64,000 bases of DNA, taken from IMG/VR virus record IMGVR_UViG_2974610597_000001; one strand, 5' to 3'. How positions within the stretch are numbered: position 1 is the stretch's first letter; each line of letters opens with the position of its first letter. The stretch comes from Escherichia virus ESCO5 (taxonomy: Duplodnaviria; Heunggongvirae; Uroviricota; Caudoviricetes). This document shows, one piece after another, positions 47,928-56,535 of the stretch. The notes under the pieces were generated by a model. That model saw only the letters and a list, made by a program, of their open reading frames with translations, ran no database searches and had not been told where the DNA came from. The translations under genes were made by a program, and so were the position numbers.

Positions 47928-48211
47928 CAGTGAATCTCCCCTAAAATGTTGTTTTGAGACATTACTGCGGAGCATTCTACAGCATCATGAGTCCTTGCAA
48001 AACGCTCCCACAGCACAGCATCTACTTTAAGAACCACACAAGGATAAATACTGTCGTTGATCATATCAATGCTATATTTATCTACATCCTTTTCATCTTC
48101 CATAAACAAAGTAGCGTATGCTTCCAAATGTTTACGGGTGTAGTATACGTCCTCTTCGGTAAGACCGACAACCAGGTAACTTGCTACAACAACAGTATTA
48201 TCTTCTTGCAT
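47927..48211 (-). CDS. hypothetical protein
   Basis: Start moved to the ATG at 48211 preceded by GGGGAG. Confidence 0.4.
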   Translation of the reverse strand: MQEDNTVVVASYLVVGLTEEDVYYTRKHLEAYATLFMEDEKDVDKYSIDMINDSIYPCVVLKVDAVLWERFARTHDAVECSAVMSQNNILGEIH

Positions 48212-48212
48212 T

Positions 48213-48734
48213 TTAACTCCCCTTTGGTAGATAGAAACCATGCACTTTATCTCGATAAACAAGACGCATATCACGCTCCCAGTGTGTCCTTATATTCCGT
48301 TTCTTGAAGTATAGAGCACCTTTAGTAACATCTAAAACAGACCGCAATTCAGGAAAATGTTTCTCTAAATAAAGTAAACGCTCCGCTATTGCTTTTGCTT
48401 CCTGCCATTTATCTTTCTCTGTCACGTTAAAAGTTTTCGCATATGAGAATTGCCCTTTCTGGAACAAGACTCCCTTGACTGTGTTAGGGAAGTAGGCATC
48501 ATTTCTTCTGTTGATTACCACATTCCCAACGGCATTCATTCCTTTTTTACCCAGACCGCGACCTTCTGCGTAAATTGCACAAGCTAATAGAATTTTATCA
48601 TTATATTGCTTTGTACATTTGTGAACTACTTTAGCGGTTTTTACGTTTGCAGCTTCGGCTTTCGCCACAACAGGTGTAAATGTAAAAGCAGTTAAGGATA
48701 GTAACGCAACTGTTACAAAGTTTTTTATCAGCAA
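48213..48734 (-). CDS. secreted endolysin, SleB/CwlJ-type cell-wall hydrolase
   Basis: N-terminal signal peptide (ending AKAEA); hydrolase motif AIYAEGRGLGKKGMNAVGNVVINRRND...GQFS; TTG start after AGGAGG. Confidence 0.6.
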   Translation of the reverse strand: MLIKNFVTVALLSLTAFTFTPVVAKAEAANVKTAKVVHKCTKQYNDKILLACAIYAEGRGLGKKGMNAVGNVVINRRNDAYFPNTVKGVLFQKGQFSYAKTFNVTEKDKWQEAKAIAERLLYLEKHFPELRSVLDVTKGALYFKKRNIRTHWERDMRLVYRDKVHGFYLPKGS

Positions 48735-48766
48735 ATTTTGCCTCCTTTTTAAGTTAACGAATTTCT

Positions 48767-48795
48767 AGTATAACACGATAGAGGCTTTATTGCAA
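48767..48795 (-). promoter_or_regulatory. sigma70-like promoter (TTGCAA - 17 bp - TATACT) upstream of the endolysin
   Basis: On the - strand, -35 at 48795-48790 and -10 at 48772-48767. Confidence 0.45.
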
Positions 48796-48815
48796 GAGGG
48801 GGATTTCTCCCCCTC
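48796..48815 (-). terminator. GC hairpin after the TerD-like gene
   Basis: GAGGGGG / CCCCCTC inverted repeat directly abutting the -35 hexamer. Confidence 0.4.
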
Positions 48816-48830
48816 AAAATCATTTGTTAA

Positions 48831-49433
48831 TTATGGACATTCATACCATTCTTTTTTACCACCGAAGGCCATTACCACATCGCAAATATCCAGACCAGCT
48901 TTACCTACACCATATGCTTTCAGCTTCCATTCTCCATCTTCACGAACCAGGGAAGCCACGTGGCAGATTGTGTTGCCAGCTACTTCAGGAGCCAGGAAGT
49001 CAAAATCCAGAATTTCCACATTACGCTCGGAGTCGAAGATTTTAAGCATACCTTCAGAAGCATGACCAAAACGTTTCAGACCTGTATCATCATCAATAGT
49101 CAGAACAAAGGCAATCTCTTGTGCATCAGGAGAGATTTTAGCCAGAGTAATATCAATCTGCTCCATGCTGCCAGTTCCATCACGAACATCGTCACCAGCA
49201 AAGGTAGAACGTTCAGGATCAAACTTATTAGCATAGCAAACCAGATGACGTGCAGACAGCATTTCAGGATTGCCAGCGGCATTGTGACGACAAACCAGTG
49301 CACTTACATCCAGATCCAGTTTAGAATCAGATTTCCAAGAGAACTCCAGGCGTAGTTCTTTCAGAGCCGGAGCAACTTTCTTCAGGGAAATTTTTTCGCT
49401 AGAGCCTTTTTTCAGGGAAATTTTATCAGTCAT
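48831..49433 (-). CDS. terD: TerD-family protein
   Basis: Duplicated ISLKK N-terminus, LDLDVSAL and GDDVRDGTG acidic loops, C-terminal EDGEWKLKAYG, matching E. coli TerD features (VSLSK, FDLDASAF, NGEWKFRAVG). Confidence 0.8.
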   Translation of the reverse strand: MTDKISLKKGSSEKISLKKVAPALKELRLEFSWKSDSKLDLDVSALVCRHNAAGNPEMLSARHLVCYANKFDPERSTFAGDDVRDGTGSMEQIDITLAKISPDAQEIAFVLTIDDDTGLKRFGHASEGMLKIFDSERNVEILDFDFLAPEVAGNTICHVASLVREDGEWKLKAYGVGKAGLDICDVVMAFGGKKEWYECP

Positions 49434-49448
49434 CTTTTGTCTCCTCTA

Positions 49449-49718
49449 TTATTTAAGTGTAATACCAGTTACAGTCAATTCTACTTCCAAAAGCTTAGAT
49501 GTGTTTTGGATTGATACTAATTGTGCATGATGGTTTAGTTCTACAGCAGAATAATCATTTTCCCCATCATCTACTTTTAAATAAACAATGATTTCACTAA
49601 GGTCTAAACCATTTTCGTCAAATGCATTTTCATAGACGAAAGTATCTCCTACATCCAAATCTTTAATGGTAAGGCATCGTTTATTTACTTTTTGCTCATC
49701 AATTTCGAAGTTTAACAC
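49449..49718 (-). CDS. hypothetical small protein (paralog A)
   Basis: 89 aa; shares DLDVGDTF..Y..A.DE.GLD and a C-terminal V.L.VT.ITLK with 50740..51018. Confidence 0.45.
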   Translation of the reverse strand: MLNFEIDEQKVNKRCLTIKDLDVGDTFVYENAFDENGLDLSEIIVYLKVDDGENDYSAVELNHHAQLVSIQNTSKLLEVELTVTGITLK

Positions 49719-49947
49719 TTCTTCCTCCTAATATTATCTCCGGTTTATATATACGAAGAATTATAGCATTTTCATTTTCTTTGTCAACCCATTCTTCATA
49801 ATCAGGCCATACATGAATCTCTACTCTACTTACAATATCTTCCATTCGCACAGTCCCAATGAAATACTCTTTGAGACTGCACATAATGAAAGCTTCTCTC
49901 TCGCGCCAATAATTTTCTATGACTTGAGAGGCAAGCTCGTCGATCAT
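49699..49947 (-). CDS. hypothetical protein
   Basis: 82-aa ORF. Confidence 0.4.
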   Translation of the reverse strand: MIDELASQVIENYWREREAFIMCSLKEYFIGTVRMEDIVSRVEIHVWPDYEEWVDKENENAIILRIYKPEIILGGRSVKLRN

Positions 49948-50738
49948 TTTTTAGCACCTACTTTAACAACCCACTCTCCGAACTCTTCAGATAAGAGTTT
50001 GTCATAAAGCTCTGAATCTGTCAAGTCTAAATCTTTAATGCCAATAAAACCAACATTATCATAAGCATTTGCCAGTTCTTTCAGGAAGCCAAACTTCTCA
50101 TTACCAACGCCAACCATGAACCAATAAATAGGTTTATTCTTATTCTCTTCAATAAGACGACGAACAGCACTAGGATCACCATTCTCACCATCCGTCTGGA
50201 AGAATACAACACCAGGGGTAACGTCAGCACCTGGTTCAGACACAGCTACAACCTTTTCACGCTCTACAGATACTGTTTCAGTTTTACCAAGCAGACGATT
50301 AAAGAAGCCTTTCTTTGGAGCCTCTTCTTGTACCACTTGTTTAGTGGTAATATATTTGGTAACAGTGCCAAAATACTCATCGTAGATATCTGCCATTACA
50401 GGGGCGTAATTTGTTCCACCTCCGATACGAACATTACGCATACATTTACCAACATAGTCATCGTAAACGTCTGCTGTTGCTGGAGTAAGCTCTTGGGAAC
50501 TCGTATTGAAGGCCCACATATCAATTTGTTGATTATCGTCGAACAGCATACCAAAAGGAAGCAGTTTACCTACAAAATCACTCACTACCCCACTAGAATA
50601 TAGACCATGCATACTACCAGAAATATCTAGAGCACATGCTACACGAAGAACAATCTTACCTTCATTCAGGTTCTTATTCTTTTTCAGAGAGAAAGCAAGG
50701 TTTTCTTGACGTTTTTTCAGGCTGATTTTATCGGACAT
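49944..50738 (-). CDS. von Willebrand factor A domain protein (TerY / TerF-vWA-like)
   Basis: MSDKISLKK N-terminus, then MIDAS motif DISGSM, GGGTNY and FQTDGENGD. Confidence 0.7.
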   Translation of the reverse strand: MSDKISLKKRQENLAFSLKKNKNLNEGKIVLRVACALDISGSMHGLYSSGVVSDFVGKLLPFGMLFDDNQQIDMWAFNTSSQELTPATADVYDDYVGKCMRNVRIGGGTNYAPVMADIYDEYFGTVTKYITTKQVVQEEAPKKGFFNRLLGKTETVSVEREKVVAVSEPGADVTPGVVFFQTDGENGDPSAVRRLIEENKNKPIYWFMVGVGNEKFGFLKELANAYDNVGFIGIKDLDLTDSELYDKLLSEEFGEWVVKVGAKK

Positions 50739-50739
50739 A

Positions 50740-51018
50740 TTATTTCTCCTTCTTAAGTGTAATGTTGGTAACTTCTAAATCTACTTCCACCATATTTGTA
50801 TCTGGCGGGATGCAATGAGTATAGCCTCGTTGTGCTAGTGATCCATTAATACAAATCGCACTGTTTGTGGAATTTTTAATGAACACCAAGTTACGGTAGG
50901 TATCCAACCCTGCGTCTTCATAGGCATCATAATACATGAATGTGTCCCCTACGTCAAGATCTTCGAAAGCAATAGGTAAATCCTGACCTTTTTCTTCTTG
51001 AATATTGAATCTAAACAC
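50740..51018 (-). CDS. hypothetical small protein (paralog B)
   Basis: Probable GTG start at 51018 after GAGGAGG; see paralog A. Confidence 0.4.
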   Translation of the reverse strand: MFRFNIQEEKGQDLPIAFEDLDVGDTFMYYDAYEDAGLDTYRNLVFIKNSTNSAICINGSLAQRGYTHCIPPDTNMVEVDLEVTNITLKKEK

Positions 51019-51574
51019 GCATACCTCCTCTACCAATTTTGAAGCCCAAATCGTAAGCTTCCTTAGTAATCTTTTGTAACTCACTTATAGGAAGTGTTAC
51101 AAGAGGATCATCTTCTTCAATTTCCATCTTGTCATCTTCTGTTTCAATGAGAGTATTATGCACTTTGTGATAAGGGTTGTCAACACGTTTAAACTTATTC
51201 TTTTCTGTGCTGAAAAAACAATCTGGATCTTCTTCACCATCACCCCAACCTTGATTAGGATCTCCGTCAGATTGTTCTGTAGGGATTTCACCTGTAAAGT
51301 ACTCTTCCAGCACCATAGCAATACCGTCCCTTGGATTTGAGGAATGCATTAAATCACAAACCTTACCCCAATCCATAGCCCATTCGAACCGTTCACGAAC
51401 GCCATTTTCATCCTCTTTTCCAGAGAAAACACAACCATAACTATCATAGTTGCCATACATCTCTTCAATAACAACACCGTCTTTCAAAAGAAAGAGGTAG
51501 CAAGGTGATCCGTCGAAAGAAGTAGAAAGGGCAGCTTTGCCCGATTCTTTGCACAAAAAACTAAAACAACCCAT
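51011..51574 (-). CDS. hypothetical acidic protein
   Basis: 187-aa ORF, Asp/Glu-rich. Confidence 0.45.
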   Translation of the reverse strand: MGCFSFLCKESGKAALSTSFDGSPCYLFLLKDGVVIEEMYGNYDSYGCVFSGKEDENGVRERFEWAMDWGKVCDLMHSSNPRDGIAMVLEEYFTGEIPTEQSDGDPNQGWGDGEEDPDCFFSTEKNKFKRVDNPYHKVHNTLIETEDDKMEIEEDDPLVTLPISELQKITKEAYDLGFKIGRGGMRV

Positions 51575-51777
51575 TACAAACCCTCCTTCAGATTATCAAG
51601 AGCTACAGTGGTTTCACAAAATTCTCCATAAGCTTTATGATGTTCCAGAAAAGCTTCGGGTCCACCCCAGTCATTATCTTGTGTATTCCAACCATCAATA
51701 AAAGCATCTTCAATGATTGTGATCAGTTCTTGTCGGGTTAACTGGATAATATTAGGATCGTTATCGTAGTTAAACAT
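51574..51777 (-). CDS. hypothetical protein
   Basis: 67-aa ORF; ATG overlaps the upstream stop. Confidence 0.4.
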   Translation of the reverse strand: MFNYDNDPNIIQLTRQELITIIEDAFIDGWNTQDNDWGGPEAFLEHHKAYGEFCETTVALDNLKEGL

Positions 51778-51938
51778 CTTCTTCCTCCTCTAAAATATGA
51801 AACCCGTAATTACAATAGTCCTGAAAGGTTTCGTGCGCAAGATCTTCTATATCCTCTTGAGACATATCATCTTCAATTTCGATATCCACAACCTCATTGC
51901 ATCCACACCAAGCAGTTTCAATATTCACTCGTAATATT
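51774..51938 (-). CDS. hypothetical small acidic protein (about 55 aa, not in the ORF track)
   Basis: ATG after AGGAGG; translation MKILRVNIETAWCGCNEVVDIEIEDD...EEEEDV; coupled start/stop overlaps on both sides. Confidence 0.3.
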
Positions 51939-51942
51939 TTCA

Positions 51943-52140
51943 TTACTCCTCCTCCTCATTGAAGTCAATATCTGCAAGGAGTTCGAATTTACGGAAGTTA
52001 CGACAACCTTCATAAATATAACAATCACGACAAACTGCTAGAACACTTGGGGGATATATGCCTCCCATCGGTGCGAATCGTTTTTCGTCATCATAACGGA
52101 CACCAATGTCTTCATCAATTATATAGATACGGATTCTCAT
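51943..52140 (-). CDS. hypothetical small protein
   Basis: 65 aa with CRDC...C and a C-terminal EEEE. Confidence 0.35.
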   Translation of the reverse strand: MRIRIYIIDEDIGVRYDDEKRFAPMGGIYPPSVLAVCRDCYIYEGCRNFRKFELLADIDFNEEEE

Positions 52141-53249
52141 TTACCAAGCCCTCGTTTCACAGCAGCTACCATCCCGTCTTCCAGAGATTGAACTTCATTA
52201 ATATAATCAACACGAGCAGCACGGGCTTCCGTATTGATGCGGTTAGTTTCTTCCAACATCTTAACCAAGTTTTCCTGATCGTGACGCAGAGTTTCAATAT
52301 CCAACACTTGACGGTTAGCCAGTGCTGCTGCTTCGATCTGATTCTGTGTGGCAAGATCGCTACCTAGTTTAATTGCCAGGTTAAATTCATCAAGAACGTT
52401 ATTCTGCGTCTCTGCTGCTTTCATTTGACGTAAGCTCTCGATATACATTGAGAAGTTAGCAGAGTAAGCAGGAATAACATTATTTACTATGTTACGCGCA
52501 GATCGCATTAAGCTTGCAGAAACTTTTTGCATACCTTGTACACGCGGTCCCATTTGGACACACAGTAGGCGCAACGCCTTTAAATCTGCAATACGAATCT
52601 CCAGGAGATCCAAAGTATCTCGGATCACTTGTCGCTGTTCTACGGCATCTTCTGGAAGAGCAGCCAAAGCTTGTTCTTCTTTTTCATAGGTTGCTGTTAG
52701 AAGCTGCATATCTCGGTTCAAACTTGCAGCATATTGTCCAATAGCTTGGTGTAGCTTTTCAAGATATACCAAGGAATCTTCTTCTTTGCGAATATCCATT
52801 TGAAGGTTCTTTACCAACTCTTCAATACGGTTATTAACATTATCAAACTCCCCAAACAGGTCTTCTTTCATACCCATAACTTTTTTAATGAGTTTAGTAA
52901 TACCCTTGCTTTGTTTAATAGAGTTTGGATCAAGTTGTTTTGCCTGTTTAATCAAGGCTGTGAGTCGTTCACTCATCTGATCGCCTTGATTACTACGTTG
53001 ATGTTTTAACACCTCGGCATTCAAGGAACGCAAGGTTGTTCCTGCCTCTGCCCCAATCTCTTCGATCTCTTGTCGGGTCATAGAAGGTAAAACTGGAACT
53101 TCTTGCGGTGCTGCTGGTGCATAAACAGGACTGGCATCTAACACACTTGGAGCAAATACAGATTTACTTGCATCTGTTGTTGCAGCGAATACACTCATTT
53201 CAGACTTCTTCTGACCACCAGTAGCTGCTTTTAAAAATGGACTTGTCAT
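52137..53249 (-). CDS. TelA-like helical protein
   Basis: 370 aa, predicted all-alpha coiled coil with a low-complexity N-terminus; size and composition fit the TelA/KlaA family; sits between the TerD/vWA genes and TerC. Confidence 0.45.
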   Translation of the reverse strand: MTSPFLKAATGGQKKSEMSVFAATTDASKSVFAPSVLDASPVYAPAAPQEVPVLPSMTRQEIEEIGAEAGTTLRSLNAEVLKHQRSNQGDQMSERLTALIKQAKQLDPNSIKQSKGITKLIKKVMGMKEDLFGEFDNVNNRIEELVKNLQMDIRKEEDSLVYLEKLHQAIGQYAASLNRDMQLLTATYEKEEQALAALPEDAVEQRQVIRDTLDLLEIRIADLKALRLLCVQMGPRVQGMQKVSASLMRSARNIVNNVIPAYSANFSMYIESLRQMKAAETQNNVLDEFNLAIKLGSDLATQNQIEAAALANRQVLDIETLRHDQENLVKMLEETNRINTEARAARVDYINEVQSLEDGMVAAVKRGLGK

Positions 53250-53836
53250 TCTTCATTCTCCTCTTCTGCATCTCTTATATATGGTGAAACACCGTACTCT
53301 TTAGCTACTTTAACCCAATCATCCCATTTATACAACCATAATTTTCCTTCAGTTCCTTCTTTATCTGATTTCAACCACATGTTAGGTTGCTTGCCTGGGT
53401 ACATGCGATTAGGTTTACGATTATAACCTCTAACACATCTTGTCGCAAACCTATCTACCAGAACAAGAACATATTTATATTCGTGGTTCAACGGCTCTTT
53501 GGAAGTGGCTTTAGGATTAGCTCCTAATTCTGCTGCCAGTTTTTGCCAATGAGCACCGTGTCTACTAAACTTACCCATACAACCATCAATAGCATGAGCA
53601 ATTTCGTGCTTCATTGTATCCACGATCATATCTCTTGTAGAGTTCTTATGCAAGTGCCAATTTACAACAACAATTTTATCTCGGTAGTTGCACCAACCGA
53701 AAGAGTTATTAACTTTGTTTCTAACACAAGCTTTATATCCTGCTTCACGTAACATGTTGTAGTAAACAGGAAAATCTTCTTTTATTTCCTGCATCACTTC
53801 CCACCACAAGAGTTGCAAGTCTCTCTCGGTATGCAT
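53246..53836 (-). CDS. SprT-like zinc metallopeptidase
   Basis: HEIAHAI (HExxH) and a downstream His/Cys-rich segment (GCMGKFSRHGAHW). Confidence 0.45.
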   Translation of the reverse strand: MHTERDLQLLWWEVMQEIKEDFPVYYNMLREAGYKACVRNKVNNSFGWCNYRDKIVVVNWHLHKNSTRDMIVDTMKHEIAHAIDGCMGKFSRHGAHWQKLAAELGANPKATSKEPLNHEYKYVLVLVDRFATRCVRGYNRKPNRMYPGKQPNMWLKSDKEGTEGKLWLYKWDDWVKVAKEYGVSPYIRDAEEENEE

Positions 53837-53839
53837 AAC

Positions 53840-54433
53840 TTACACCTTAAAAGCGAAATGCGTGGTCGTGGCTTCAAAATCAGGGCCAGATAAACTTGCA
53901 CTGAAATCTGAAATATTTGTAATTAAAAAGCTTTTATGCATACCTAACACAGCCACGCTTTCAATATCTTCTACTAACATTTCAATCATGTTAGAAACAT
54001 GGCTGAACGTAGAGTTTTGTTTTTTGATGGTGTAGAAAGAAAGATTCCCACCTGCTATATAAGACACCTCTTCAAAATCTTTAATCGTATATTGTGTGCC
54101 ATCAGTAAAGAAAATGGTAGCTTTATTAGTAGCACGTTTCTTGTTTTTTGGTCCTTTTTTACGTTTACTGCGAGTAGGCAAACCGTTTGGAAATACCGTA
54201 GCTACAAATTCTTCAGGAGAAACCTCCTTACCGAAATCATAACCGTAAGAAACAGCGTCTATAAACTCGTCGTCTTCATTTTTAAAATAATGAAAATAGG
54301 GCCAATTTGAGAGATTATCGAGCATCTTATGCTCATCCACAGCAGAGAACGTATCCCTCAAAGCACGTGTGATTTGCAAAGCATTAGGCAAACTTTTAAC
54401 ACCTGTAATGGAAGTACGAATAGAAATTGTCAT
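53840..54433 (-). CDS. hypothetical protein
   Basis: 197 aa with a basic patch (RSKRKKGPKNKKR). Confidence 0.4.
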   Translation of the reverse strand: MTISIRTSITGVKSLPNALQITRALRDTFSAVDEHKMLDNLSNWPYFHYFKNEDDEFIDAVSYGYDFGKEVSPEEFVATVFPNGLPTRSKRKKGPKNKKRATNKATIFFTDGTQYTIKDFEEVSYIAGGNLSFYTIKKQNSTFSHVSNMIEMLVEDIESVAVLGMHKSFLITNISDFSASLSGPDFEATTTHFAFKV

Positions 54434-55461: not shown

Positions 55462-56535
55462 TTAAACAGCAGCTTCTTCTTTTTCAGGGAAGATAAAGCT
55501 TGCAATAACACCAAGAGATAATGTGCCTAGAACAATCATCAGACTTACGTTAGGGGAAATATCATGCGGGAGGAATGACCACTTGGCATGAAGTGTTTCA
55601 CCGAACGGGTGATACATAAGTTTAGCACCAACAAACACCAGAACCACAGCAACAGCTTTCTCTAAGTGAACCAGATATTTCACAGCTACACTTAACACAA
55701 AGAAAAGTGCACGTAAACCAAGAACAGCCATCAGCATTGCAGAATAAACTAGCAGAGGTTCTTGTGTCACACCGATTACAGCCGGAACTGAATCAAAAGA
55801 GAAGACAATATCTGTAAGCTCAATAACAAACACACAAAGAAGAGCAGGAGTTGCATATTTAATACCATTCTTAATGGTAATGAACTTTTCACCATCTAGT
55901 GCATTGTGCACAGGCAGAACTTTACCTACTAAACGAACAGCCCAATGCTTAGAGTAATCAATATCCTCTTCTTCGTCACCACCTTTGATGATAGCCACGG
56001 CAGACCAAGCTACAATCAAACCGAACAACACTTGGACCGACCAATGAAGGTTAAACAAAGCGGTCCCTGCTGCAACAAAAATACCTCGGAAGACAATGGC
56101 TCCTGCAATCCCCCAAAGTAAAATCTTATGTTGAAGATGTGTGCTCTTAATTCCAAAGCTTGCAAAAATTGCCATGAATACCATCAGGTTATCTACAGAA
56201 AGACTCTTTTCCAACACATAGCCACTTAGGAAAAGCGCGGCAAACTCTTTACCATGTTCTACCCAAATGAATGCGTAATATCCTAAAGCTAAAGCAATCC
56301 AAAAAACAGACCAAAGCAAAGCAGATTTAATTCCAATTTCTTTATTTTTACCATGTTCTACCCAAATGAATGCGTAATATCCTAAAGCTAAAGCAATCCA
56401 AAAAACAGACCAAAGCAAAGCAGATTTAATTCCAATTTCTTTATTCTCTTTATGACCAAAGAAATCGATACCAATAGACAATGCCAAAATACCAACTAAA
56501 ACAACTACATCAATAATTGGGAAACCGAGTTGCAT
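55462..56535 (-). CDS. terC: TerC-family integral membrane protein
   Basis: Multi-pass membrane protein with LEKSLSVDN and TDIVFSFDSVPAV motifs; contains an internal exact 33-aa duplication. Confidence 0.8.
   Translation of the reverse strand: MQLGFPIIDVVVLVGILALSIGIDFFGHKENKEIGIKSALLWSVFWIALALGYYAFIWVEHGKNKEIGIKSALLWSVFWIALALGYYAFIWVEHGKEFAALFLSGYVLEKSLSVDNLMVFMAIFASFGIKSTHLQHKILLWGIAGAIVFRGIFVAAGTALFNLHWSVQVLFGLIVAWSAVAIIKGGDEEEDIDYSKHWAVRLVGKVLPVHNALDGEKFITIKNGIKYATPALLCVFVIELTDIVFSFDSVPAVIGVTQEPLLVYSAMLMAVLGLRALFFVLSVAVKYLVHLEKAVAVVLVFVGAKLMYHPFGETLHAKWSFLPHDISPNVSLMIVLGTLSLGVIASFIFPEKEEAAV
56248..56445. repeat. perfect 99-bp tandem duplication (2 copies) inside terC
   Basis: 56248-56346 is identical to 56347-56445; in frame; CTCTTTA occurs at both 56245-56251 and 56446-56452. 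Confidence 0.95.

Follow-up and report, generated by a model that had tools for sequence, protein, structure and literature searches.

What are the two small proteins of about 90 residues that Escherichia virus ESCO5 encodes beside its vWA-TerF-like gene and its TerD gene, and do they belong functionally to these neighbors? The DNA considered here, referred to as the window, is a stretch of 64,000 nucleotides of this phage (IMG/VR record IMGVR_UViG_2974610597_000001). Both genes lie on its minus strand, small protein A (92 amino acids) at 50740-51018 and small protein B (89 amino acids) at 49449-49718, and these open reading frames (ORFs) were confirmed where an initial annotation of the window had placed them. 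Judging from their sequences, A and B are two anciently diverged paralogues of one phage-specific family. The family is restricted to the vWA-TerD module yet optional there, and thus is a facultative accessory of this module.

B starts with GTG 6 nucleotides downstream of AGGAGG and runs from 49718 to 49449; A also starts with GTG, downstream of GGAGG, and runs from 51018 to 50740. The mechanical ORF of A reaches 51084; a start at 51018 is supported by its alignment with B, by homologues and by the annotations deposited for phAPEC8 and phi92. In a gapless end-to-end BLASTP alignment, 30 of 89 positions of A and B are identical (34%, 49.3 bits, E = 4e-14). This similarity is far beyond chance, so the paralogy suspected in the initial annotation holds. 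Both proteins are full-length members of PHROG 11278 (A with 6.7e-51 over positions 1-92 of 92, B with 7e-45 over positions 1-89 of 92), a family without functional, structural or contextual annotation, and their genes are deposited as hypothetical proteins in ESCO5, phAPEC8 and phi92. The strings DLDVGDTF, GLD and EV.L.VT.ITLK occur in both proteins as described earlier; only the middle of the first motif had been read one position off, and it is corrected here to DLDVGDTF.Y..A.[DE][ED].GLD. A family hidden Markov model (HMM) run over the window found A and B and no third copy.

The ratio of nonsynonymous to synonymous substitution rates (dN/dS) of A against its orthologues is 0.17-0.38, and lower values of 0.04-0.16 were obtained for vWA and TerD. 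For B against the Wec190 lineage, the proportions of nonsynonymous and synonymous differences are 0.37 and 0.79, with saturated synonymous sites. Compared at equal depth in the phylogeny, identity is 21-37% among the small proteins, 46-50% for vWA and 41-45% for TerD. These substitution patterns indicate that A and B are real genes under purifying selection which evolve faster than vWA and TerD.

The two neighbors, earlier described as calcium-binding-type genes, were identified by profile matches: the vWA-TerF-like protein (264 amino acids, 49944-50738, minus strand) matches PF10138 with 1.6e-37 and the TerD-domain protein (200 amino acids, 48831-49433, minus strand) matches PF02342 with 3.2e-28. 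The placement of the small genes directly downstream of them has to be reversed, since A lies directly upstream of vWA and B directly upstream of TerD. The TAA stop codon of A is separated by 1 nucleotide from the ATG of vWA, and the spacer between B and TerD measures 15 nucleotides and contains GAGGAG. B does follow vWA in the order of transcription, but only past an intervening ORF of 82 amino acids (49947-49699), whereas it directly adjoins TerD.

This arrangement is maintained over large evolutionary distances. In about 10 phage lineages with identities down to 21-30%, every member with a readable context is found within a vWA-TerD pair or borders on one. In complete phage genomes, tblastn found two places per Phapecoctavirus record, one per phi92-like record and no copy elsewhere. 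Searching 1.84 billion representative proteins with a family profile gave 39 hits, about 14 of them stand-alone proteins of 87-93 amino acids and the rest giant repeat proteins. No bacterial context was seen in this search; the credible hits are stand-alone proteins of about 90 residues and all contexts that were read are phage-like. The giant repeat proteins carry DUF11 or DUF7507 repeats, besides one ankyrin protein. Homology to them was rejected, as with a broader profile no single repeat exceeds 10.6 bits (i-Evalue of at least 4.6e4 at library size). Summed sub-threshold repeat matches thus produced full-sequence E-values down to 1e-28, which calls for caution in the automated annotation of this 90-residue family.

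Within the module, different slots are occupied. Only the A slot is filled, in the order small gene, vWA, TerD, in phi92, Klebsiella phage 05F01 and three further loci (L018, L021 and L035). Both slots are filled in Phapecoctavirus, phiWec190, PsgM04F and the IMG/VR locus L016, and the latter three also carry a homologue of the 82-residue ORF. In uncultured phages (L004, L005-L008, L012 and L020) one copy lies between vWA and TerD, and these middle-slot proteins are only 21-37% identical to A or B; the cut contig L011 shows only a small gene followed by TerD. One uncultured lineage has a tandem pair between vWA and TerD (L009, 1180-1725; L010, 257-802), whose copies are 31% identical and arose by a duplication independent of that of A and B. 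In a neighbor-joining tree, the A clade is separate from the B clade and the middle-slot copies lie outside both. The middle-slot copies, like B, have no C-terminal KKEK-type tail; in the A clade this tail is the Shine-Dalgarno sequence of vWA read as codons (AAG AAG GAG AAA TAA T ATG). In 05F01, an unrelated protein of 239 amino acids replaces the 187-residue protein encoded upstream of A in ESCO5, and A still adjoins vWA.

The sequences of A and B and the family profile have no match in Pfam (E ≤ 0.01), NCBIfam, PADLOC or among PDB sequences. The core Ter families TerD, TerB, TerC, TelA and vWA-TerF-like in Pfam are matched strongly by the neighboring genes and by neither A nor B. No signal peptide or membrane segment was obvious in any member on sequence inspection; the family is probably cytoplasmic. 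An AlphaFold monomer calculated with 17 diverse sequences reached a predicted local distance difference test score (pLDDT) of 84.6 and a predicted template modelling score (pTM) of 0.71, with a short helix at 30-36 and five short strands; with 8 close sequences only, pLDDT was 46.7 and the model unusable. The predicted fold of the family appears to be an SH3-like small beta-barrel. Structural matches of the model include SH3-like, KOW and L2-type folds, some of them RNA-binding, with scores that denote a fold class and not homology, and Foldseek against PDB gave nothing significant. The conserved residues are mostly those of the hydrophobic core; the conserved positions are G24-[DE]25-T26-F27, G37-L38-D39, K48, N58, F4 and an amphipathic C-terminal strand. 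The isoelectric point (pI) is 4.35 for A and 4.26 for B, and all family members are acidic, with pI values of 4.3-5.5 and net charges of -2 to -11.

This acidity, together with metal-binding neighbors and the resemblance of the string D-L-D-V-G-D in A and B to DxDxDG-type calcium loops, could mean that the small protein is itself a low-affinity binder or buffer of divalent cations (Ca2+) beside TerD and vWA. We regard this as very improbable, because the first two aspartates of the loop are not conserved and only L..G[DE][TS]F is kept in the family. At D20 and D22 of DLDVGD, other members have Gly, Lys, Pro, Thr or Leu instead, so that a calcium loop is no family feature; a DxDxDG or EF-hand-like loop is ruled out here by its unconserved acidic ligand positions.

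The transcriptional layout of the locus brings in a further explanation. A sigma-70 consensus TTGACA-16-TATAAT with an upstream TG lies at 49760-49787 on the minus strand, within the 82-residue ORF, which thereby carries a promoter-like site for B and TerD 41 nucleotides before the start of B. With 12 of 12 matching bases it is the only perfect sigma-70 consensus in the window (0.09 expected; at least one match in 7 of 100 shuffles). It remains 12/12 with the same spacing in the lineage of Wec190, PsgM04F and L016, where the surrounding ORF DNA is 67.5% identical; the chance that all 12 promoter bases stay conserved is about 0.009. The second site, TTGACA-17-CATAAT at 51155-51183 on the minus strand, matches in 11 of 12 bases, lies inside the 187-residue gene 136 nucleotides before the start of A, and is conserved in Phapecoctavirus, the Wec190/PsgM04F lineage and phi92-like phages. 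Both are thus promoter-like consensus matches backed by conservation. A terminator scan found nothing terminator-like between the A-vWA and B-TerD units or between the small genes and vWA or TerD, so that transcription of the small genes would read into vWA or TerD. Read literally, these sites would give ESCO5 two units in parallel, promoter-A-vWA and promoter-B-TerD. As A and B are each the promoter-proximal first cistron, each copy would be made together with its neighbor, A and vWA from the site at 51183-51155 and B and TerD from the site at 49787-49760.

Genes that come first behind a promoter-like site, tightly spaced before the next gene, could also act as leader cistrons or autoregulators that set the translation or transcription of vWA and TerD, and the SH3-like, KOW and L2-type fold matches, which include RNA-binding domains, would fit such a role. 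The SH3-like barrels of the L2 C-terminal domain, of the KOW domains of EF-P, eIF5A and Spt5 and of Tudor domains have RNA or peptides as ligands and are as a rule basic or neutral. What A and B would share with them is a predicted fold class and not homology, and the strong acidity of the family is atypical of RNA or DNA binders and argues against nucleic-acid binding. Furthermore, purifying selection acts on the protein sequence itself, and phages without the small gene couple vWA and TerD to other upstream genes or to a promoter-like site of their own. Control of expression is therefore less likely, and we consider it a rather improbable function of the family.

In phages without B, the short spacer between vWA and TerD still has a promoter-like site with 10 of 12 matches (L017, 4296-4399; L001, 6067-6138), and in L017 a GC-rich hairpin follows this site before TerD. 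TerD thus seems to have its own promoter with or without B.

Due to the exclusive and deep linkage, the two slots flanking vWA, the duplications in place, the tight coupling to the next gene and the acidic small barrel, we tentatively favor the reading that the A/B family is a facultative, phage-specific accessory of vWA-TerD which acts by protein-protein contact. Such contact, like any other physical association and any influence of the family on how Ter works, is inferred from context.

Several observations weigh against this reading. In a reverse test, loci were recruited from viral and metagenome collections by the vWA protein alone and scanned with HMMs of all three families (vWA, TerD and the small one); after one contig fetched twice was merged and loci that were too short were set aside, 21 informative loci remained. 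The small gene is present in 9 of these 21 and missing in 12. A whole lineage (L017, L028-L030, L032-L034 and L036) encodes a vWA protein 64-70% identical to that of ESCO5, directly followed by TerD, without a small gene in either slot. L025 and the jumbo-phage loci L023 and L024 are without the small gene as well. It is also missing before vWA in L019, a locus that ends too soon after vWA for the middle slot to be read. The conserved small partner subunit proposed in the initial annotation therefore stands as far as linkage is concerned, because all members lie at vWA-TerD, and falls as a universal or obligate subunit. Among cultured phage records, 210 encode this vWA protein and 127 the small family, and 83 of the 210 are without it. 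Outside this phage group, all vWA-TerD modules are without the small gene. The clearest case is the pair L004 and L022: their vWA proteins are 93.5% and their TerD proteins 90.3% identical, and a clean indel of about 290 nucleotides removes the small gene in one of them. Since a phage this close to a carrier is cleanly without the gene, vWA and TerD can function without it. In addition, no fusion of the small family to vWA or TerD was found among the 1.84 billion proteins, and shared regional synteny, for example of the downstream cell-wall hydrolase gene, means that the linkage is partly inherited gene order.

Variation within Phapecoctavirus points in the same direction. Between ESCO5 and 536P1 (L014), 44 of the 141 differences over 8.3 kb fall inside gene A (window 50750-50999), and vWA, the 82-residue ORF and B are identical. 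The changes in A are mostly synonymous (dN/dS 0.18), and such clustered and mostly synonymous changes indicate gene-sized recombination that replaced the A allele rather than positive selection. In 65 Phapecoctavirus records, identity of A to ESCO5 is at least 95% in 50, 90-95% in 13 and 80-90% in 2, while B is at least 95% identical in all 65 and vWA in 64. An exchange of the A allele without a change in vWA argues against tight co-adaptation of the two.

The main alternative is that A and B are moron-like accessory genes, with roles for instance in host take-over or anti-defence, which sit in permissive promoter-proximal slots, and that the linkage reflects inherited order and not a function in common with vWA and TerD. 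Phage morons are promoter-associated accessory genes which are variably present. The small genes resemble them in their presence/absence polymorphism, even between near-identical phages, in having their own promoter-like site, with a companion ORF at each copy, and in their quick evolution. Repeated loss and duplication, the faster divergence compared with the neighboring genes, the concentration of ESCO5-536P1 differences in A and its greater variability than B or vWA in the 65 records all fit this explanation, as does the fold comparison with BFVD, where the best matches beyond the family are many uncharacterised small phage barrels. Unlike morons, A and B are confined to one functional module and have no terminator of their own. 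It also speaks against a moron that two different slots are in use which both flank vWA, that independent duplications were kept in place, that the complete genomes of 150 kb hold no copy elsewhere, and that no member in the roughly 10 lineages lies outside the module. We regard a moron-like nature of the genes as somewhat unlikely, and stay with the tentative assignment of the family as an accessory of vWA-TerD.

If this assignment is correct, A and B most likely bind vWA and/or TerD directly. In the infected cell, the small protein would then be an adaptor or modulator of the way in which these two proteins assemble at the membrane together with TelA and TerC. The residues D38, S40, S42, T109 and D183 of the metal ion-dependent adhesion site (MIDAS) of vWA are invariant across 8 diverged phage homologues. 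It is conceivable, and speculative, that the G-L-D loop contributes its invariant Asp as an acidic ligand to this intact metal site; a further point against such a contact is that this residue, Asp39, could equally be paired with the invariant Lys48 in a structural salt bridge. In its most specific form the proposal would be that A and B are SH3-like adaptor subunits which dock on the vWA MIDAS and on TerD, that the paralogues are specialised for their clients, and that they switch or scaffold an assembly of TelA, TerC, TerD and vWA. We consider this version unlikely as a whole. If true, A and B would be the first protein ligand identified for vWA and TerD proteins of the Ter type, and two genes would suffice as a simple way into the biochemistry of Ter systems.

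The N-terminal segment of vWA (MSDKISLKKRQENLAFSLKK, 50738-50680) resembles the first-strand motif of the TerD domain, as seen at the N-terminus of TerD (MTDKISLKKGSSEKISLKK, 49433-49375), and its conservation is high throughout the 8 vWA homologues. This segment could be left over from a TerD-vWA fusion of the TerF type, or it could be a recognition peptide that both proteins have in common.

The ORF of 82 amino acids between vWA and B (49699-49947, minus strand, PHROG 22387) is under purifying selection, with a dN/dS of about 0.32-0.37. The idea that it is a degenerate third copy of the small gene was rejected (hhalign probability 0.15%), and a match to the C-terminus of the 187-residue protein, which would make it a duplicate of that region, is unconvincing (BLASTP E = 0.043 over 31 residues). 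The acidic protein of 187 amino acids encoded upstream of A (51011-51574, minus strand, PHROG 14928) has a net charge of -20 and the N-terminus MGCFSFLCKESG, and no relative of it was found in Pfam, NCBIfam, PADLOC or PDB. It accompanies A in Phapecoctavirus and phi92-like phages and is missing where A is missing.

In the window, the minus strand carries every gene from about 42 to 57 kb. In the direction of transcription, a gene for a TerC-family membrane protein (55462-56535, minus strand; PF03741, 4e-40) is followed by several small ORFs, an SprT-like protein, a TelA-family protein (52137-53249, minus strand; PF05816, 3.2e-33), which marks the region as a phage Ter cluster, and three small ORFs. 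Then come the 187-residue protein, A, the vWA-TerF-like protein, the 82-residue ORF, B and TerD, and the next gene after TerD encodes a SleB-type cell-wall hydrolase. A GC-rich hairpin read from the sequence just past the TerD stop codon (GAGGGGG-AGAAAT-CCCCCTC, 48796-48815, minus strand) may mark where the unit ends; a T-run is absent, and the hairpin was not called by the terminator scan. ESCO5 belongs to Phapecoctavirus, a genus in the subfamily Stephanstirmvirinae, and positions 48000-54000 of the window are 100% identical to Escherichia phage ESCO5 and 98-99% identical to about 60 other members of the genus such as phAPEC8. Inside the TerC gene, the window contains an exact tandem duplication of 99 bp at 56248-56445 (2.0 copies, 100% match), which is in frame and doubles 33 residues of the N-terminal membrane region. 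This repeat is single-copy in the deposited ESCO5 records and in every other listed Phapecoctavirus match. A query of 391 bases maps to a span of 292 bases there, so that the window differs from all those listed records at the repeat.

A and B thus lie inside a Ter-type module with TerD, TerC, TelA and a TerF-type vWA, and the TerC/TelA/vWA-TerF-like/TerD region of ESCO5 is an abbreviated phage Ter cluster. Such abbreviated clusters have already been reported in some large phages (PMC7824862; PMC8386662). Most phage Ter modules are without the A/B family, and the family is seen in phage-like contexts only. The literature covered on Ter modules, to which the original comparative account (Anantharaman et al. 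2012) did not belong, mentions no small SH3-like component, and nothing relevant was found for phi92 gp174 or for Phapecoctavirus together with tellurium. The FeoA-FeoB pair offers a parallel in gene organisation, and only by analogy. FeoA is a small protein with an SH3-like fold whose gene directly precedes that of its partner FeoB. A and B have no Pfam match to FeoA (PF04023), the Foldseek E-value of 0.52 is not significant, and the partners are different. The existence of the genes and their PHROG were already known; what appears to be new is the paralogy of A and B, their exclusive but facultative link to vWA-TerD, the predicted fold and the layout with each copy as the first cistron after a promoter-like site.

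Ter-type modules are widespread in bacteria, plasmids and large phages, and to our knowledge their molecular mechanism is still unresolved. The family described here is a small variant on a known system, unsurprising in itself and useful as an experimental handle. A small protein that is found only within the vWA-TerD pair, sometimes with one copy before each partner, offers a cheap experimental entry to Ter. Should it bind vWA or TerD, the kind of target that these proteins recognise would come to light; otherwise it would be an ordinary, fast-evolving small accessory gene of phages.

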